This document shows, one piece after another, positions 119 to 29,983 of a stretch of DNA of 64,000 nucleotides. How positions within the stretch are numbered: position 1 is the first letter of the stretch; each line of letters opens with the position of its first letter. A program made the position numbers and the translations under genes. Source of the stretch: Escherichia phage VEc74; the sequence record MT932213.1; one strand, 5' to 3'. Below the pieces are notes generated by a model. That model searched no databases. It saw nothing but the letters and a program-made list of their open reading frames with translations, and was not told where the DNA came from.

Positions 119-378
119 AAAAGATTCCTTTTAATGTATCTTTTAGACCATTCTATCATATCATCATAATCTAAAAAGTATTCATCAAATTCAGCCATGC
201 AAACAACACCTTGTGCTGCTTTTGATGTGATATAAATTATTCCAACATATCTAGAATCTTCTTCGGTGTAATCAATATTTGCTATGAATTCATCGTTAAT
301 GTCAAATGTCGAAAACTTCACAGTATGCATCCTTAATACAAGATACAGCCATATCTTGTAATGATTTAGGTGTGTCAT
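115..378 (-). CDS. Hypothetical small protein (46.1-like position); true start uncertain
   Basis: ORF track; stop overlaps putative gp46 start; N-terminus overlaps next ORF so start is probably internal. Confidence 0.4.
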   Translation of the reverse strand: MTHLNHYKIWLYLVLRMHTVKFSTFDINDEFIANIDYTEEDSRYVGIIYITSKAAQGVVCMAEFDEYFLDYDDMIEWSKRYIKRNLL

Positions 379-565
379 TATCTAAAATGTTGAAGTTAAA
401 AGATACAGCCCAGTCAGTGCAGACCGTAACCTTTTTAATACAATTATCTTCAACCTCTAGTGGTTCAAACCAGTATTCAATAATTTCTTTATGCCCAATA
501 TCATCTTTTACTTCGCATTCAAAATGCTGACTCATCATAACATTTTTAAATTCATCAAAAGTCAT
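302..565 (-). CDS. Hypothetical protein (46.2-like position)
   Basis: 87-aa ORF immediately downstream of gene 47 with stop/start overlap. Confidence 0.5.
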   Translation of the reverse strand: MTFDEFKNVMMSQHFECEVKDDIGHKEIIEYWFEPLEVEDNCIKKVTVCTDWAVSFNFNILDNDTPKSLQDMAVSCIKDAYCEVFDI

Positions 566-1581
566 TGTGTTGCCTCTACATATAACTGATTTGCATATTG
601 AATAAGTGCTTCGCGATCAGAATCAGTGATGTCTGGAATTGCATTAATGTATTCTTCCATCAACGTCTGAAGAGATTGAACTTCAACCTCTTCGCTATCA
701 TCTGACTCGACAGAGTTATCAATCTTTGACACAACTCGTAATGAATGCACAACTTTTTCTAGTTCAGATTCGAACTTCGTCAGATTTTTGTCTACCTCAG
801 TTACTATAACACGTACTGATAGATTTGTAAAATCTTTATAGTCAATTTTTCCCTTAAATGGATATTGAATTCGACGATGCCAGGTAGTGTTGTTTGGAAT
901 AAATTCCATTCGTTCTGTTTCTGTATCAAACATCCAGAACCCACGAGGGTCATTCTCGTCACCTGCTGTTAGTGTCCATGGTGTCCCAATATATCTGACG
1001 TTAGCAGCCTCAGAGATAGTATGGAAGTGACCAGACCACACCTCTTTATAAGTCTTAAGGAAATCAGGTTCAAGACCGTGAGATTTCATTCCTTTATAAA
1101 AATAAAATCCATTCAGCTCCCAATGACCAACACAAAAAGAAGCAGATGAAGTTTTGATGTGTTCAAGAATTTCACCAGTATTTTCTTCACACATCCAAGG
1201 AATTAAATCAATCAAGCATCCGTCAAAATCTACTGTAGTAGGCTTATCATATACTTTAACATTAGGATATTTAGCTAAAAGCTCAGTAGAAGCATTTGGA
1301 GTTAAAGTATTTTTAAAGTGCATATCATGGTTTCCTACAACAGTATGTAGGGTAATACCAGCATCATCAAGCATTTGAACTATTTCACGGGCAAACTCCA
1401 TAGTTTTATGTGTGATTGCTTTTCGCACATCAAAAATATCGCCGTATTGAATCCATGTAGTAATTCCGTTTTTCTTAGAATATTCTATCGCTTGCTTAAT
1501 TCCATCTAATTGGATTGATTGAATCCACTCATCATCAGCTTTAACGCCTAAATGCCAATCACCTAAATTTAAAATTTTCAT
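562..1581 (-). CDS. 47: Recombination endonuclease subunit gp47 (Mre11/SbcD-like phosphoesterase)
   Basis: 339 aa; calcineurin-like phosphoesterase motifs LGDWHLG, GDIFD, GNHD, GHFH; matches T4 gp47 as I recall it. Confidence 0.9.
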   Translation of the reverse strand: MKILNLGDWHLGVKADDEWIQSIQLDGIKQAIEYSKKNGITTWIQYGDIFDVRKAITHKTMEFAREIVQMLDDAGITLHTVVGNHDMHFKNTLTPNASTELLAKYPNVKVYDKPTTVDFDGCLIDLIPWMCEENTGEILEHIKTSSASFCVGHWELNGFYFYKGMKSHGLEPDFLKTYKEVWSGHFHTISEAANVRYIGTPWTLTAGDENDPRGFWMFDTETERMEFIPNNTTWHRRIQYPFKGKIDYKDFTNLSVRVIVTEVDKNLTKFESELEKVVHSLRVVSKIDNSVESDDSEEVEVQSLQTLMEEYINAIPDITDSDREALIQYANQLYVEATQ

Positions 1582-1718
1582 ATATCAAGAACCGTCATTG
1601 AAATGCAAAATAAAATTATTGAAATAAATCCATCTGGAGTGCTAAAGAACCCAATCCAACATGCTCTAGTGAATAGATAAAATGCGAGAAAAAGTATCAC
1701 ATATCCAAGAAATATCAT
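1578..1718 (-). CDS. Small hydrophobic protein (46 aa), translationally coupled to gene 47
   Basis: ATG at 1718, MIFLGYVILFLAFYLF...; stop TGA overlaps ATG of gene 47 (ATGA); not in ORF track (<60 aa). Confidence 0.3.
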   Translation of the reverse strand: MIFLGYVILFLAFYLFTRACWIGFFSTPDGFISIILFCISMTVLDI

Positions 1719-1741
1719 TATATCAAACTCCGTATAAAGCT

Positions 1742-1759
1742 AAAGGGCCGAAGCCCTTT
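1742..1759 (-). terminator. GC-rich tetraloop hairpin overlapping a-gt stop (weak terminator / RNA-stability element)
   Basis: aaagggc-cgaa-gcccttt palindrome; weak T-tract on minus strand. Confidence 0.3.
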
Positions 1760-2960
1760 ATTTTGTAATAATGTCAAACTGCTCTTTAAAGCAGAAGCTT
1801 GAATCTTGATGCTGATACAAAAATTCATAAGCTTTTTCGCGTTCACGGTCATAAAGAGCTCGGTCAGATGACAGTTCTTTAATACGTTCAAATGTTGATT
1901 CCATGTCATTTTCATCAAACCAAACGATACCGCTATCGTGCGAAATTAATGGAGTATTATCAACACGGAATTTTAAATTTTCGCCAGTAGATTTCCAAAA
2001 TACTGGAATTGTTCCACATGCACCAAGCTCGAGATGAGTATATTCTAAAGAACGCTGTAGATATTTTTTATCTAATTTACTCAGCTGATAACCAAATCCG
2101 GATTTACTCATGCGTTCAAGCATTTCGCTATTTACATAACGGTCGAGAATTTGCGTCGGCAAATTAGGAGCAATTTTAATTTGGTCTACTTGATGAAGAC
2201 GATAATACTCGTATGGAATTCCTTTTTCTTTAATAGGAATGAACGCTGGAGAACGTTCCAGACCTTCCATAATAGTACTTAGTCCTGCAGGTTTAAGATG
2301 TTTTTCGTGAAAATCAAACATCTGATAAAAGCCTTTCCATGTAGTAGTACGACCAATCCAACGATTGATATTCATGTTAATTTCAGAAACATCTTTCCAG
2401 TAGGTTGATCGAACCTTCGCAATATCCATGGGAGGCTGAAAGTTATATACGGTCGGTGCTTCTTCAATATCATCAAATAGAGAAACAGTTTCCGGATACC
2501 ATTCTTTCATCAGAACTTTATTAAAATCACCATTATCAGAATGGCTAAAAATAACATCAGCCCGACGAACAGTTTCTTCTAATCCCAAATTTCGACGCAA
2601 AGAAAGAGAAGAATGGTCATGCTGATAAACTACAACACGAACCGAAGGTTTAATGTTATCAATAATTTTTTTATAGTTATTAATGGTGTCTTCTTCAACT
2701 GAAGTAGCAGGAACTGAATTGATAACTAGAATATCACAATCATTTACCAGCTTAAGCGTTTTATCGTATTCTTTTGCCAATAAAACCGGAATTGAAAATG
2801 ATTTATAATCATGCGCGCAATTACGAGTAAATGATTTATCTTTAGCATAAACCAAAGTTACTTCATGACCATTTTTAATAAACCAATCACGCTGCTCAAG
2901 AGAAAATTTAGTTACACCGCAACCTTCAAGACCTCGAGCCATAAAAATGCATACTTTCAT
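1758..2960 (-). CDS. a-gt: DNA alpha-glucosyltransferase (hydroxymethylcytosine glucosylation)
   Basis: 400 aa; near-identical over its length to T4 alpha-glucosyltransferase as I recall it (MxxCIFMARGLEGCGVTKFSLEQRDWFIKNGHEVTLVYAKDKSF...). Confidence 0.9.
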   Translation of the reverse strand: MKVCIFMARGLEGCGVTKFSLEQRDWFIKNGHEVTLVYAKDKSFTRNCAHDYKSFSIPVLLAKEYDKTLKLVNDCDILVINSVPATSVEEDTINNYKKIIDNIKPSVRVVVYQHDHSSLSLRRNLGLEETVRRADVIFSHSDNGDFNKVLMKEWYPETVSLFDDIEEAPTVYNFQPPMDIAKVRSTYWKDVSEINMNINRWIGRTTTWKGFYQMFDFHEKHLKPAGLSTIMEGLERSPAFIPIKEKGIPYEYYRLHQVDQIKIAPNLPTQILDRYVNSEMLERMSKSGFGYQLSKLDKKYLQRSLEYTHLELGACGTIPVFWKSTGENLKFRVDNTPLISHDSGIVWFDENDMESTFERIKELSSDRALYDREREKAYEFLYQHQDSSFCFKEQFDIITK

Positions 2961-3010
2961 TTAATATCCTCATTGTTTTGGTTTATTTTACCAAAAATTT
3001 ATAAAGCAAT

Positions 3011-3030
3011 ATAGGAGCCGAGGCTCCTAT
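3011..3030 (-). terminator. Stem-loop upstream of a-gt (putative terminator/attenuator)
   Basis: ataggagccgaggctcctat perfect hairpin followed on minus strand by T-rich ATTGCTTTATAAATTTTT. Confidence 0.35.
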
Positions 3031-3203
3031 CCGCATAATACGCCATACAGAGGCTCATTAGAGCTTCTAAATTTTATGCGCTTATATGTTATAGTTCCTT
3101 CTGCTTTAGCTTTATCGTGAGCCTCTTTAAAGCGTCTCATCATTTCTACTTTAGAGGAACGAATTTTATTATAATCTATTTCAGAAGTCTGGGTGTTCAT
3201 CTT

Positions 3204-3407
3204 TCACAGTTGCCACCATTTTTTGACTTGATAAGAATCAACCCACACTTTCATATTAGGGTCTGCTCTTACAATAGGAGGATTAACTTCTTTAATTGAA
3301 CTATCATGGTATTCTTTTTCAGAAATTTTCACACAAAGATGACCGTTCAAAGATTCAGTAAATCCTGCATTAATTTTAAGACGCTTGAATTTTACGTGTG
3401 TAAGCAT
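3204..3407 (-). CDS. Hypothetical small protein
   Basis: ORF track (68 aa); overlaps upstream gene end; weak support. Confidence 0.25.
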   Translation of the reverse strand: MLTHVKFKRLKINAGFTESLNGHLCVKISEKEYHDSSIKEVNPPIVRADPNMKVWVDSYQVKKWWQL

Positions 3408-3693
3408 CAATCATATCCTCAATCTGCGATCTAGTAGTCTTCCAAAGAATACTAATGAGTTCATCATTATATGGCTGTTTTAGAATATCCCGACTTTTCT
3501 TGATAGCATATTCGTATTGAGCAAAATTATTGTTTTCAGCTGCAATTTGAGCGTGTTTATAAAGACGGTTCAGTTCGCGTTTGTTTTTAGACAATAACTT
3601 ATTTGCTTTTCTTTCTGCTTCAAGACGGTTCTTTTCTTCAATAGAAGAAATAAGCTTTTCCACTTCATCATTAATTTCGGGTTTATCAGTCAT
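3376..3693 (-). CDS. Hypothetical coiled-coil protein
   Basis: 105-aa ORF, charged/helical composition. Confidence 0.5.
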   Translation of the reverse strand: MTDKPEINDEVEKLISSIEEKNRLEAERKANKLLSKNKRELNRLYKHAQIAAENNNFAQYEYAIKKSRDILKQPYNDELISILWKTTRSQIEDMIDAYTRKIQAS

Positions 3694-7298: not shown

Positions 7299-7769
7299 TT
7301 AATCATGTTTCCACACCCCATCGGTATTTGACCAAAGTCGCTGATTATCTGATCCTCGCCACAGCTTTTTAGTCGGAAGATTTTTCTCATACTTCCCATC
7401 AATAATAACATCAACATATTTAAGCATTTCTAGTTGTTTAATATCTTCAAATTTATATCCTGTCCACAACCAAATGCTTTTATTGGGATAAAGATTTTTT
7501 ACTGTTTGAACGATGCAATGAATAACATCTCGGTTATCAGGATAGAGAGGGTCTCCTCCAGTTATAGTTAATCCTTCTATATAATCATTATTCAAACATT
7601 CAATTAATTGTTCTAGTGTTTCACCAGTGAATGGAATACCATTTCTAGCATTCCATGTTGATTTATTATAACACCCTTCACATTTATGCAAACAACCTGT
7701 AACGAAAAGAACGACCCTGCAACCAGGGCCATTCACAAAATCGCAAGGATAAAATCTATCATAATTCAT
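7299..7769 (-). CDS. nrdG: Anaerobic ribonucleotide reductase activating protein (radical SAM)
   Basis: 156 aa; CxxxCxxC cluster motif CLHKCEGCY; adjacent to nrdD. Confidence 0.85.
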   Translation of the reverse strand: MNYDRFYPCDFVNGPGCRVVLFVTGCLHKCEGCYNKSTWNARNGIPFTGETLEQLIECLNNDYIEGLTITGGDPLYPDNRDVIHCIVQTVKNLYPNKSIWLWTGYKFEDIKQLEMLKYVDVIIDGKYEKNLPTKKLWRGSDNQRLWSNTDGVWKHD

Positions 7770-9583
7770 TGGTGTTTAACCCTATGCATGATTTCTTTAT
7801 TTTTGCCGAGATTAAATCCACGTTCGTTCGGATTTCCCAAATAACCACATGTTCTTCTTATGGTATTCATCTTTTTAGGATCAGTTTCTCCACAAATAGA
7901 ACAAACAAATCCGTTTTCAGTAGGAGTCATTTCATGGGTACTTCCACATGTAAAACATTTATCCACTGGCATATTAACACCAAAATAATCTAAATGTTGT
8001 GCAGCATAATCCCATACGGCCTCAAGACCTTTCAAGTTATTTTTCATATCAGGAAGTTCAACATAAGAAATGTGACCACCTGTCGCAATGAAATGATATG
8101 GCGCTTCACGAGAAATCTTTTCAAACGGAGTAATATTTTCTTCTACTGAAACATGGAAACTGTTAGTGTACCAGCCTTTATCGGTAACATCTTTTACACT
8201 TCCATATTTTTCTGTATCAAGTTTACAGAAGCGATAACAAAGGTTTTCAGCAGGAGTCGAATATAAACTAAAAGCAAATCCGGTTCTTTCAGTCCACTGT
8301 TTAAGATGAGCATTCATTTTAGTTAAAATTTCTCGTCCAATATCACGACCGGCAAGAATATTCAATTCGTGAATACCAATGTATCCTAAAGACACTGAAC
8401 TTCTGCCGTTTTTAAATAACTCAATTATATCGTCATCAGGTTTAAGACGAACCCCGAATGCACCTTCTTGATAAAGAATAGGAGCAACAGTAGCTTTAAC
8501 TCCTTTTAAGGAACTAATTCTACACATCAAAGCTTCAAAACATAAATCCATTCGCTCATTGAACAATTCGATAAATTTCTGTTCATTGAACTGTGTTCCA
8601 ATATAAGAATCTAATGCGATACGAGGAAGATTCAGTGTTACAACACCAAGATTATTACGTCCATCAAGAATTTCATTACCGGTTGAATCTTTCCACACAC
8701 CCAAGAAACTGCGGCAACCCATTGGAGAAACAGGAATAGATGAGCCGGTGATAGCTTTATTGTTCTTAGCTGAAATAATATCAGGATACATTCTTTTGCT
8801 TGCGCACTCTAGAGCAAGCTGCTTAATATCATAGTTCGGATCGTCTTTATAAAGATTAACACCTTCTTCAACAAACATAACAAGCTTAGGGAAAATAGGA
8901 GTTATCCCATCACGACCAAGACCTTTAATACGATTTTTCAGAATTGCTTTCTGAATCATTCGTTCAGTCCAGTCAGTTCCCGTACCAAATGTAATTGTTA
9001 CAAAAGGCGTTTGTCCGTTTGAACTAAAGAGAGTGTTTACTTCATATTCATAAGCTTGAAATGCATCGTATACGTCTTTTTCTGTTTTAGATTGAGCATA
9101 ATTCAACGCATCAGCGATTTGCCATTTTTCTGCATCCTCAATATGTTTTGCATAGGTGCGTTTAACATAAGGAGAAAGTACTTTATCTACATTCGCAAAA
9201 GTCGTTCCGCCGTATTGGTGAGAAGCAACCTGTGCAGTAATTTGTGCCATAATTGCAGTAGCAACACCGATTGATTTAGGAGTTTCAATCTGTGCATTAC
9301 CAAGCTTAAATCCATTCTCAAGCATTCCTTTTAAATCTACTAAACAACAATTAGTAAATGGAAGAGCAGGGGAATAATCAATATCGTGGAAATGGATAAT
9401 TCCGCTTTCATGCGCTTTCATAATAAAAGACGGGACCATATTTTTGGCAATGTGTTTAGACACAATACCAGCCATAAGGTCCCGTTGAGTTGGAAAAACA
9501 CGAGAATCTTTATTAGCATTCTCGTTTAAAAGGTCTTTATTAGTTTTATGAATCAATCCTTCAATTTCTTTTTCAATTGTCAT
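7766..9583 (-). CDS. nrdD: Anaerobic (class III) ribonucleotide reductase, uninterrupted
   Basis: 605 aa; C-terminal glycyl-radical motif RRTCGYLG and Zn-ribbon CFTCGS...CSICG; single continuous ORF (no intron). Confidence 0.9.
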   Translation of the reverse strand: MTIEKEIEGLIHKTNKDLLNENANKDSRVFPTQRDLMAGIVSKHIAKNMVPSFIMKAHESGIIHFHDIDYSPALPFTNCCLVDLKGMLENGFKLGNAQIETPKSIGVATAIMAQITAQVASHQYGGTTFANVDKVLSPYVKRTYAKHIEDAEKWQIADALNYAQSKTEKDVYDAFQAYEYEVNTLFSSNGQTPFVTITFGTGTDWTERMIQKAILKNRIKGLGRDGITPIFPKLVMFVEEGVNLYKDDPNYDIKQLALECASKRMYPDIISAKNNKAITGSSIPVSPMGCRSFLGVWKDSTGNEILDGRNNLGVVTLNLPRIALDSYIGTQFNEQKFIELFNERMDLCFEALMCRISSLKGVKATVAPILYQEGAFGVRLKPDDDIIELFKNGRSSVSLGYIGIHELNILAGRDIGREILTKMNAHLKQWTERTGFAFSLYSTPAENLCYRFCKLDTEKYGSVKDVTDKGWYTNSFHVSVEENITPFEKISREAPYHFIATGGHISYVELPDMKNNLKGLEAVWDYAAQHLDYFGVNMPVDKCFTCGSTHEMTPTENGFVCSICGETDPKKMNTIRRTCGYLGNPNERGFNLGKNKEIMHRVKHQ

Positions 9584-26279: not shown

Positions 26280-26600
26280 TTATTCTTTAAATCTAATCAA
26301 TTTATTCATAGACTTTGAAACTTCGGCACGAACCTCATGTAGATTTTTGAGCTGTTCAAGACGCTGCGTATAGTAAGCAATTTCATCTTCTTCGAGACAG
26401 TCCTGTGAATCTTCTTTAAGATAACGTGCATAGTCCTGGAAAGCTTTACGGACTACTTCCTGGAAGTCATCAAGACTTTGAATTTTCTTAGGAGCAACAG
26501 ATACACGACGAGGGGCAGTATAATACTCATAACCAAACCCTGCGCTTAATTGAGCCATTAGTATTTTTCCTCTGGTTGGAACACTGCACGACAAGCCCAC
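26280..26600 (-). CDS. Hypothetical protein (vs.3 position)
   Basis: ORF track. Confidence 0.5.
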
Positions 26601-26860
26601 ATACTGGCTTCTTTGAGTTTCGTTTTAGCAATAGTTAACTGATCGAGGCTTTCGGCGTAATTCTTCGCGAGTTCATCATCTTCACAGCTATCAAATGCTT
26701 CCCAAAATTCATCGTATAAAGCATCAAAGATAAGTCCTAAACGAACTTCAGCGTCTTTAATAGCATTTACTTTACCGATTTTTTCGTCGGTATGTGGCTT
26801 ATAACCTTTAATATCTTCAATCATATTTGACTTCCTCACCAGTACATAAATCGTATTCAA
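26558..26860 (-). CDS. Hypothetical protein at the vs.4 position (possible Acb2-family cyclic-nucleotide sponge; assignment by synteny only)
   Basis: Fourth ORF after regB in a block collinear with T4 regB-vs.3-vs.4...; start uncertain. Confidence 0.4.
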
Positions 26861-27038
26861 CTAAACGAATAGGTTCATGAATGCCATATCCCTGAACAGA
26901 AATTTCTGTAGTAGGATAAATTCCATTAATATCACCCATGTTCCATGCTTCGTTAAATTGCTGTTCGCCTGAATTACTAAACCATTCGGCGAAAGCATTT
27001 AGCACATCTTCAGAACCTTCAATAATTATCTTTGCCAT
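26817..27038 (-). CDS. Hypothetical small acidic protein (vs.5 position)
   Basis: ORF track. Confidence 0.45.
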   Translation of the reverse strand: MAKIIIEGSEDVLNAFAEWFSNSGEQQFNEAWNMGDINGIYPTTEISVQGYGIHEPIRLVEYDLCTGEEVKYD

Positions 27039-27400
27039 TACAAACTCTCGGTAAAGGTACGAGCGATAACATCGCGCTGCTGTTCCGGAGTCAGAGAGTT
27101 AAAGCGAACTGCATAACCGGATACACGAATGGTCAGCTGCGGATATTTTTCCGGATGCTTAACTGCATCTTCCAGAGTTTCACGACGCAGAACGTTAACG
27201 TTCAGGTGTTGACCACCTTCAATTTTAACTGTAGGCTGTGGCTCAATTTCAATTTCACGGGCATGCAAACCATAGAAAATTTCTGGGTCTACAAAAGAGT
27301 CCTCTTTAAAGGTTTTAGAAACGATAATTCGTGCTTGAATACCATCTTCAAAATAAATAGTACCTTTATGTGTGCCTTCAAGAATTTGATATGCTTTCAT
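27038..27400 (-). CDS. Autonomous glycyl-radical cofactor (GrcA/YfiD-like)
   Basis: 120 aa ending with glycyl-radical signature [26 protein letters not shown]. Confidence 0.8.
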
Positions 27401-27407
27401 ATAAACC

Positions 27408-27737
27408 TCAATTAGAAAATAAATTTATCCAAGATTGTTCTTTAATTAAAAATGGCTCAGAATCATATGCCATTAAACTCTGTGTGATTAGTCCTTTAAA
27501 AGGCCCATCAATAAATTCCATGGTAAAATATGGAATTTTATTCATTAGCCGTGCATTAGGAGCAGTGCACAAAACTCTGCATCCTTTGAATACACCTTTT
27601 TGTAATTTGTATTGTTTGGGATAAAATTCGCTTAAAATGTTGTTATTTGCCAAAATTTCAAAATGATTCACCAATTTATTTTTAATAGTTTTTGGCGAAA
27701 AATAAAGATATTCGAAAAGCTGAGTGTCTGTCATCAT
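27408..27737 (-). CDS. Hypothetical protein (vs.7 position)
   Basis: ORF track trimmed to internal ATG. Confidence 0.4.
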
Positions 27738-28321
27738 TGCATTCCAATTACGAAAAACTGTGGACGAGTAATACCACCAATACAACATTTAATATTACAG
27801 CAGCAGTGTACAGTGTCAATATGGACACTATAAATCTTATCCATATCAGGAGATTTGACAGGCTCATCAATTATATATAAAATTCGCGAAAGCGATAAAC
27901 CTCTGAACTTGCTTCCTTTATTACCAATAAAACTGCGCACAGAATCAGTAAATAAACGAAAACGTATATCATCATTAGAATAACGCGAAAATTCCTTTTT
28001 AATGTTATTTGCAGAAATTTTAGCGTAAGCTGAAGTATTAGAAAGAACAATAACTGTTCCGCCATCATACAACCAATTAGCAGCAAAGTTAGTCACAGCA
28101 ATTGATTTACCGGATTGACGTCCACCATCTAGTCGAAGTGTACAATACTGTTTAAGTAAGTCTTCAAATGGCGGGATATATTCGTTTTTACAAATTTCTT
28201 CTACTCTAGCATCAGAATGGTGTGTAAAAGCATTCATCAGGGATAGATAAGGACCAGTTAAAAATGTTCTCATTTTATTCTCTCTAAATTTGGGCCATTC
28301 CATGGCGCATGAATTGTCCAT
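27734..28321 (-). CDS. P-loop NTPase-like protein (vs.8 position)
   Basis: Walker A-like GGRQSGKS; ATG at 28321 lies inside repeat copy 1. Confidence 0.5.
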   Translation of the reverse strand: MDNSCAMEWPKFRENKMRTFLTGPYLSLMNAFTHHSDARVEEICKNEYIPPFEDLLKQYCTLRLDGGRQSGKSIAVTNFAANWLYDGGTVIVLSNTSAYAKISANNIKKEFSRYSNDDIRFRLFTDSVRSFIGNKGSKFRGLSLSRILYIIDEPVKSPDMDKIYSVHIDTVHCCCNIKCCIGGITRPQFFVIGMQ

Positions 28322-28341
28322 TTCTGTATTTACCCATTACC
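28292..28341 (-). repeat. Direct repeat copy 1 (carries the start codon of 27734..28321)
   Basis: 31-nt core gaattgtccatttctgtatttacccattacc repeated 29/31 at 28947..28977. Confidence 0.6.
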
Positions 28342-28414
28342 GCACTTGGGCTCGACCTTATTACAGGTTGGCGGGAATCCCTCACAGAATCATGAGGTCC
28401 AGGTTGTTCCCATG

Positions 28415-28888
28415 TTATTTGAACGATTTAACGTACTGAATAGAACCTTTACTATTCACAAAGGCAATTTTACCATTTTTGTTATACATAGTAGCAGTAC
28501 GTTGATAGCCATAAGTTTGCTTACCAGATTGATAACCAACTAATGCAAAATTATCTTCACCCATTTTATTCTGTTTAGCGCGAATGCGTTCATGACCATG
28601 TGCCATAAGAACCTTAGCATCACCAGTTGCAATGGATCGACGAGTTTTTTCATCTTCAACTGTATTAACAAAGTCGTCAAATGAATCAAATTTAGCATGA
28701 GATTTATTATACAGTTTTCCATCTACTGCATAATTATATCCTTGTACATCCATCTCAACTTCTGTACCATCATCTAATACAGCAGTAATTTTCTGTCCTT
28801 TTTTAAATTTCAAAAGATCAGTAAAAGATTCAGCAATAATTTGAGAATTAATAGCTGCCTCAGTAATAAATTCTTGATATGTTTTCAT
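28415..28888 (-). CDS. Internal-protein-like capsid-targeted protein (CTS leader MKTYQEFITEA)
   Basis: N-terminus matches the T4 internal-protein capsid-targeting sequence with L/I-x-E cleavage context. Confidence 0.65.
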   Translation of the reverse strand: MKTYQEFITEAAINSQIIAESFTDLLKFKKGQKITAVLDDGTEVEMDVQGYNYAVDGKLYNKSHAKFDSFDDFVNTVEDEKTRRSIATGDAKVLMAHGHERIRAKQNKMGEDNFALVGYQSGKQTYGYQRTATMYNKNGKIAFVNSKGSIQYVKSFK

Positions 28889-28929
28889 GTATATCCTTTA
28901 AATGTAAATAGTTTTATTCTTTAAGTTTT

Positions 28930-28977
28930 GGACAATTCATGCGTGTGAATTGTCCGTTTCTATATTTACCCATTACC
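28930..28977 (-). repeat. Direct repeat copy 2 with perfect palindrome ggacaattca/tgaattgtcc; start codon position reads ACG
   Basis: 28947..28977 is 29/31 identical to copy 1; 28930..28955 forms a 10-bp-stem hairpin. Confidence 0.6.
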
Positions 28978-28996
28978 AGGTTCGAACTCGGCTTTA

Positions 28997-29561
28997 TTAA
29001 GAATTACCGCGGGCTGCATTAGCAACGGCGTAAGCGTACTGAACATTAGCGTCTTTAAACGTACCTTTAGAGGTATCTAGTTCTGCCTTAAAGCCACCTT
29101 TAGTCATAACCTCGGCGAATTCTTTACGGAAAGCCATTGCATCAAGACTTCTCCATGATGATTTGTGCTTGGCGAATTCAAGACCAGCGTAGTTGACAGC
29201 CTTAGCTAATTTATTATCAATAACCCATTTACCAGCTTTAGGCACAAACACCGGGCCTTTCTGTTTAGAGAACAGTTTTAAATTCCAGCGACGAAGGTCA
29301 CCGTCGGCTTTAACAAAAGCTGCGTCTAAGTTACTAGCAACAACATCCTGAATATGGCCAAATTTAAGCCCATCAACTTCAATATTTAGATCGGTACGCC
29401 AGCGAAGTCCTTCCCAAGCGAAAGCTTTAAAGTCGGAAGCCTTTGTAGCTAAGTACCGTTCAATAGGAGCCGTTTCCCGATCGATAGGTCCACTCATCTT
29501 TATTAATGCCTTTGGCCTTTTCCACAGAAGCTTCAGCGATAAATTCTTTATACGTTTTCAT
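28997..29561 (-). pseudogene. Internal-protein-like gene with frameshift between CTS leader and body (or sequencing indel)
   Basis: ATG at 29561 encodes MKTYKEFIAEASVEKAKGINKDEW... which stops after 33 codons; the 166-aa body (28997..29497) is in the -1 frame and that frame is open across the junction. Confidence 0.45.
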
Positions 29562-29577
29562 GTGTTTCCTTTAATTT

Positions 29578-29895
29578 TTATTCTTTAGGGAAGTTTTTAG
29601 AATATGCATCATAAAGCTTATTTCCAATACGGCGGAAAACTCTAGCCGCAAAACGATTTTCTGGGTTTTTAATCATGATTTGCATCATATAAGTACCCGC
29701 GTCAGAAAGAGCTTCTTCATAGTACCCATTAATTTCTTTAAGAGTCCTACGTTTACCACCAGGACCATCAACAGTGATTTTCCATTTACCTGTAGAAGTG
29801 CGACTTGGCGGCTCAACTTGTTCAATCCAGATATAACCACCTTCTACACGTTGTCCTGCAGCAGATTCTGCAATAAATTCTTGATAGGTTTTCAT
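29578..29895 (-). CDS. Internal-protein-like capsid-targeted protein (CTS leader MKTYQEFIAES)
   Basis: 105 aa, basic; CTS leader; own early promoter. Confidence 0.65.
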   Translation of the reverse strand: MKTYQEFIAESAAGQRVEGGYIWIEQVEPPSRTSTGKWKITVDGPGGKRRTLKEINGYYEEALSDAGTYMMQIMIKNPENRFAARVFRRIGNKLYDAYSKNFPKE

Positions 29896-29944
29896 GTGTT
29901 TCCTTTAAATATTTTAATTAGTAATTTGTCTCTTCAAGTAACTG

Positions 29945-29982
29945 TGAATATACTATCACAATTCCAAGAGAAAGTAAACAAC
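29945..29982 (-). promoter_or_regulatory. T4-type early promoter
   Basis: minus-strand GTTTAC (plus 29974..29979) upstream of 29578..29895. Confidence 0.45.
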
Positions 29983-29983
29983 T

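Follow-up and report, generated by a model that had tools for sequence, protein, structure and literature searches.

An apparently host-derived radical domain in the T4-type autonomous glycyl radical cofactor (Vs.6/Y06I) of Escherichia phage VEc74

When analyzing a 64,000-nt stretch of DNA from Escherichia phage VEc74 (sequence record MT932213.1; hereafter, the window), we found that a 120-aa open reading frame running from ATG to TAA on the minus strand (27038..27400) is vs.6, and that it very probably (our estimate is about 0.85) encodes a T4-type autonomous glycyl radical cofactor (Vs.6/Y06I) that rescues the pyruvate formate-lyase (PFL) of the host. A 3-kb query around the gene matched 890 phage records, the best of them Tequatrovirus genomes at 95 to 98% identity, and RefSeq names the gene "autonomous glycyl radical cofactor GrcA" in the Tequatrovirus relatives. 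The window is a T4-like (Tequatrovirus) genome, and the gene is the ortholog of T4 vs.6. Its product has the same length as T4 Vs.6 (Y06I, NP_049730) and is identical to it at 119 of 120 positions; residue 73 is R in VEc74, as in E. coli GrcA, and H in T4. At the DNA level the two genes differ at 8 nucleotides and have a mosaic structure in common. The gene neighborhood is also that of T4, where the order is vs.8-vs.7-vs.6-vs.5-vs.4-vs.3-regB, and orthologs of Vs.7, Vs.4, and Vs.8 are recognizable beside vs.6 in VEc74. A full-length match to PHROG 1209 (1.2e-62, residues 1 to 120 on profile positions 1 to 121), the near-identity to T4 Vs.6, and the conserved gene order place the protein in the T4 Vs.6 family.

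The spare-part function itself has been known since 2001, and its rediscovery here adds nothing new. In the passages of Andorfer et al. 2021 (PMC8683613) that concern these proteins, Wagner et al. 2001 (BBRC 285:456; Knappe and co-workers) are cited for the finding that E. coli YfiD and T4 Y06I restore the function of oxygen-cleaved PFL. The same passages state that the PFL activating enzyme installs a glycyl radical on YfiD or Y06I and that the protein, once activated, associates with cleaved PFL in a complex. YfiD and Y06I are described there as the only validated spare-part proteins (PMC8683613), and a 2026 review (PMC13450708) also cites the Y06I work of Wagner et al. 2001. A comparative genomics study of 2006 reported a Gly_radical match of vs.6 in six of six T4-like genomes and proposed a link to nucleotide metabolism (PMC1524935). 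No in vivo phenotype of a vs.6 deletion was found in the searchable literature. A sequence-only reading of the window had proposed a GrcA/YfiD-like spare part for the repair of host PFL damaged by oxygen, a proposal that the one-residue distance to T4 Y06I and the biochemistry reported in the passages cited above bear out; the reading missed that vs.6 is long known, named, and experimentally characterized.

The similarity of the protein to the GrcA/glycyl radical family is far beyond chance. The C-terminal glycyl radical signature pointed out by the sequence-only reading, whose quoted string corresponds to residues 90 to 115, was recovered by Pfam Gly_radical at residues 61 to 101 (2.8e-18; 66.8 bits, cutoff of 22.2 bits), and the NMR structure of E. 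coli GrcA/YfiD (PDB 6owr) aligned with residues 22 to 120 (8.6e-42). E. coli PFL was matched at 5.2e-26, while glycyl radical enzymes other than GrcA and PFL reached 4e-12 or weaker; the radical domain is of the PFL type and not that of another glycyl radical enzyme. The architecture is that of a small stand-alone protein, with an N-terminal region and one C-terminal glycyl radical domain within 120 aa. The NCBIfam GrcA model TIGR04365 aligned with residues 20 to 120 (3.7e-45), with a score of 153.3 bits against a curated equivalog cutoff of 170 bits, which was missed because the N-terminal half is divergent. On its sequence, we therefore assign the gene to the GrcA family as a member of its phage Vs.6/Y06I branch and not as a bacterial equivalog. 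Apart from this cutoff, every sequence and architecture feature of the GrcA family was found in the protein.

In an alignment of 47 phage and bacterial homologs, the N-terminal half proved homologous throughout to that of GrcA; R24 does not vary, and Q5, K29, and D34 hardly vary. The loop R92-V-S-G95-Y-A-V98 is invariant in 11/11 and 47/47 aligned homologs. Gly95, whose codon was read from the sequence at 27116..27118 (minus strand) within the RVSGYAV motif, is the predicted radical site and the counterpart of GrcA G102 and PflB G734; the prediction is based on the alignments to 6owr and PFL and on the invariant column.

Comparison with known proteins shows what kind of piece Vs.6 is. Residues 58 to 120 are identical to PflB residues 697 to 759 (2pfl, 1h16) at 49 of 63 positions and have the RVSGYAV Gly loop in common with them, but PflB is a 759-residue enzyme with a catalytic Cys418/Cys419 barrel, whereas Vs.6 is the detachable radical-bearing piece alone. 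Residues 60 to 120 are 100% identical to residues 67 to 127 of E. coli GrcA/YfiD (P68066; 6owr). Over the whole length, however, the identity is about 59%, with a weakly similar N-terminal half; the phage protein is 7 residues shorter and, unlike E. coli GrcA, is phage encoded with an AT-rich 5' half. The short GrcA2 and GrcA3 proteins (NF008341 and NF038360; about 78 to 80 aa) have the same Gly-radical domain, and their models score 93 to 107 bits over Vs.6 residues 60 to 120, below their cutoffs; they do not have the N-terminal half that Vs.6 and GrcA possess.

In the proposed mechanism, oxygen cleaves PflB at its glycyl radical, G734; Vs.6 would bind the cleaved enzyme, and host PflA would install a radical on Gly95. 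The C-terminal 60 or so residues of Vs.6, a copy of the PFL radical domain, would enter the PFL barrel in place of the lost C terminus, so that the Gly loop of Vs.6 replaces the missing part and pyruvate can again be converted to acetyl-CoA and formate. The N-terminal half would assist binding to cleaved PFL and activation, as in YfiD. For a protein one residue different, published work has shown that host PflA installs the radical and that cleaved PflB regains activity. In an AlphaFold2 (AF2) model, the C terminus (helix, Gly hairpin, and helix) superposes on PFL with 0.8 Å over 43 residues and matches YfiD 6owr with an E of 1.4e-6 in Foldseek; the model supports the predicted insertion of the C-terminal domain into the PFL barrel. 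During infection, the purpose would presumably be to keep carbon and energy moving through fermentation in a gut host that is anaerobic or microaerobic and whose protein synthesis has been shut off by the phage. Homologs occur in 1,591 phage records, a spread that speaks for selection. Thus understood, vs.6 is a textbook-style phage auxiliary metabolic gene, a host repair part for an oxygen-sensitive fermentative enzyme, which presumably keeps the supply of energy and acetyl-CoA going in gut-like conditions of fluctuating oxygen. Points against the PFL model are that the searchable literature yielded no in vivo phenotype, that the TIGR04365 score is below the cutoff, and that the homolog lies inside an nrdD/nrdG cluster in two other phage lineages, which hints at some connection with the radical machinery of the phage itself.

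The two halves of the gene differ in origin. The 3' block (gene nt 179 to 363, codons 60/61 to the stop; 27038..27222, minus strand) was delimited by blastn, alignments, and GC content. These 185 nt encode the structured glycyl radical domain and have 96 to 98% DNA identity to Escherichia grcA; by blastn, they match E. coli grcA at 96.8%, with hits in 5,426 of 5,426 complete E. coli genomes. The 5' half has no match in the same 5,426 genomes. The left boundary of the patch is sharp and lies at codon 60/61, six residues into the NMR-defined structured domain; on the right, the patch ends about 10 nt short of the vs.6 stop, and the alignments showed no similarity to the E. coli grcA region outside the gene. 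The GC content is 0.47 in the patch versus 0.34 in the 5' part. Where the amino acid is the same, the patch codons are identical to those of E. coli in 58 of 60 cases in T4 and 55 of 61 in VEc74. Klebsiella phage 150040 encodes the identical 61 residues, yet only 32 of 62 codons are common with E. coli.

The donor of the patch was of the Escherichia lineage and the direction was from host to phage, since of the grcA genes of 81 bacterial genomes that of Escherichia comes closest (182/186 for T4 and 179/186 for VEc74), ahead of the next genus at no more than 168/186; as a yardstick, E. coli and Citrobacter grcA agree at 172/186. The 5' half of the phage type and the gene position are common to other T4-like genera, and the gene therefore predates the patch, which replaced its original 3' half, most simply by homologous recombination with DNA of the host. 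VEc74 and T4 differ at 3 of 178 positions in the 5' part and at 5 of 185 in the patch, from which the event would be roughly as old as the radiation of the T4 clade. Across the phage collection, patch identity is bimodal, with 638 records at 95% or higher, 8 at 90 to 95%, 298 at 80 to 90%, and 566 at 60 to 80%. We considered whether the 3' half is matched to the host in phages generally. This was rejected: with Klebsiella, Citrobacter, Morganella, T5-like, jumbo, and Aeromonas phages, none exceeded 162/186 against the 81 bacterial grcA genes, a set made up of the best 80 loci found in one scan, in which the exact hosts of the phages compared may be missing. Among the lineages sampled, the host-identical patch thus appears confined to the T4 clade (about 640 phage records). 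We found no mention of the DNA mosaic of vs.6 in the searchable literature. The patch is a clean case of host-to-phage DNA replacement ending at a protein-domain boundary and, as such, a minor addition to what is known of the gene.

The 5' half (codons 1 to 59; 27223..27400, minus strand) is of a phage type and, by alignment, a divergent homolog of the GrcA N-terminal region; its conservation extends across T4-like, T5-like, jumbo, and Aeromonas phages. Truncation showed that YfiD's N-terminal half promotes binding to cleaved PFL and activation, and NMR of free YfiD showed residues 1 to 60 to be disordered. AF2 models residues 1 to 50 of the phage protein as a four-strand beta unit (pLDDT of 85 to 88). 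In a control run with E. coli GrcA on the same alignment, the same unit was obtained (pLDDT of 83 to 88), so that nothing points to a folded N-terminal module specific to the phage, an idea that we rejected; the beta unit is a family-wide prediction of AF2. Set against the NMR disorder of free YfiD, the model suggests that the region may fold on binding. Foldseek matches for the N-terminal part were KOW/SH3-like and nonsignificant. Over the N-terminal 55 or so residues, the predicted unit of the phage protein and of E. coli GrcA comprises four to five strands.

Other roles for Vs.6 have to be weighed against rescue of host PFL, and most of them involve the anaerobic ribonucleotide reductase. 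As the sequence-only reading had it, the phage encodes a class III enzyme and its activase: nrdD (7766..9583, minus strand; 605 aa) matches NF006732 at 4.3e-273, with Pfam NRDD and Gly_radical domains, and nrdG (7299..7769, minus strand), a radical SAM activase of NrdD, matches TIGR02491 at 5.3e-59, with Fer4_12 and Radical_SAM domains. That vs.6 is encoded "alongside" them is right as far as the genome goes but not as to position, since the distance is about 17.5 kb in VEc74 (about 17.2 kb in T4). Closer arrangements occur elsewhere. In the jumbo Escherichia phage UE-S1 (Asteriusvirus), the order is nrdD-grcA-hyp-nrdG (locus positions 1 to 2631), and in Aeromonas phage AsFcp_4 it is nrdD-nrdG-vs.6-nrdC-nrdH, with a stop-start overlap of nrdG and vs.6 (locus positions 365 to 3666); the arrangement in phage phiAS5 looks similar. 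NrdD was found in 2,922 phage records and a GrcA-like gene in the 1,591 mentioned above; T5-like phages have both, about 27 kb apart. The simplest reading of this co-occurrence is a shared anaerobic gene set. It could also be taken to mean that Vs.6 is a spare part for the phage NrdD and replaces its oxygen-cleaved glycyl radical C terminus, as the sequence-only reading thought conceivable. The Pfam Gly_radical domain in both proteins, the position of the homolog between nrdD and nrdG in UE-S1 and directly after nrdG in AsFcp_4, the presence of GrcA-like genes in phage groups that also carry nrdD, and the nucleotide-metabolism role proposed in 2006 (PMC1524935) are in line with it. However, BLASTP of Vs.6 against VEc74 NrdD detected no similarity (E = 5.6), and a local alignment anchored on the Gly of Vs.6 and the NrdD C terminus scored 23 versus 22 ± 4 for shuffles. 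Vs.6 has neither the CxxC...CxxC zinc ribbon nor the RRTCGYLG motif that are found in the radical domain of NrdD, and NrdD would be a very unlikely fit for a domain identical to that of the PFL-specific GrcA. With the two genes some 17 kb apart in VEc74 and T4 as well, we rejected NrdD as the target and regard its repair by Vs.6 as highly improbable.

In a variant of PFL rescue, the phage NrdG would install the radical on Vs.6, either together with host PflA or in its place, and the rescue would no longer depend on how much activase the host supplies. This variant finds some footing in two phage lineages, unrelated to each other, where the gene is syntenic with nrdG, in AsFcp_4 with the nrdG-vs.6 stop/start overlap, and in the conserved phage-type sequence of the N-terminal half, the part that affects activation in YfiD. 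Glycyl radical activases are usually specific for their cognate enzyme, though, and the VEc74 protein is a clear NrdG equivalog that matches PflA models weakly (51 bits versus a cutoff of 232). The N-terminal fold in AF2 is the same in the phage protein and E. coli GrcA, with no distinct phage module, and host PFL-AE suffices for Y06I according to the part of PMC8683613 that deals with activation. We consider NrdG activation unlikely. Similarly doubtful is a coupled reading in which Vs.6 is tied to the anaerobic radical machinery of the phage, for example, through activation by NrdG, and the T4-clade domain would be kept matched to the host enzyme by gene conversion from host grcA; within it, the conversion patch is well supported, while the evidence for the NrdG link is the synteny in jumbo and Aeromonas phages, which hints at it. 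Finally, Vs.6 might act as a decoy, titrating host PflA or blocking PFL and so redirecting pyruvate metabolism. In principle, competition with host GrcA and PFL for the activase is conceivable for a perfect copy of the GrcA domain, and phage mimicry of a host domain provides a general logic. But what the T4 protein does to PFL in vitro is to restore its activity and not to inhibit it, as stated in the relevant passages of PMC8683613, and the 47 homologs have conserved the catalytic Gly together with all motif residues, as expected of a working cofactor; a decoy is thus extremely improbable. Rescue of host PFL with activation by host PflA is the reading that we prefer.

In its surroundings, vs.6 looks like one unit of a tightly packed, codirectional gene cluster, since its Shine-Dalgarno sequence GAGG, read 5 nt upstream of the ATG at 27406..27409 (minus strand), shares nucleotides with the TGA stop of vs.7, and its own stop overlaps the ATG of the next gene (TAATG, 27036 to 27040). 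A promoter specific to vs.6 was sought, and promoter-like sites were not enriched (15 found versus 17 ± 4 expected); with such sites at the expected number, a gene-specific promoter or terminator was rejected. Opposite vs.6, a 127-aa open reading frame with a TTG start (27032..27415, plus strand) is without any support and is most likely a shadow ORF, as which we treated it.

Some further differences from T4 were observed in the window. In T4, nrdD is a joined coding sequence with a group I intron carrying I-TevII, and a homing endonuclease gene, mobC, separates nrdD from nrdG. Neither the I-TevII intron nor mobC is present at the VEc74 locus, where nrdD is a single uninterrupted, intronless open reading frame overlapping nrdG by 4 nt (7299 to 9583, minus strand). 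Two genes downstream of vs.6, the Vs.4 ortholog (26558 to 26860, minus strand) is 94% identical to T4 Vs.4 and matches the Pfam Acb2/Tad1 hairpin domain (1.4e-19), a family of phage sponges for cyclic-nucleotide immune signals. T4 Vs.8 (219 aa) matches 27734 to 28385 (minus strand) in two frames, with aa 1 to 32 at 28385..28290 and aa 26 to 219 at 28321..27737, so that, compared with T4, the VEc74 gene is split or carries a frameshift; at the vs.8 position in the relative G4498, two separate coding sequences are annotated. No tblastn match to T4 DenV was found anywhere in the 64,000 nt. Between vs.8 and the lysozyme gene e, the T4 genes are denV-ipII-ipIII; in their place, VEc74 has open reading frames at 28322 to 29983, whose counterparts in the close relative G4498 are annotated as internal virion or head proteins.
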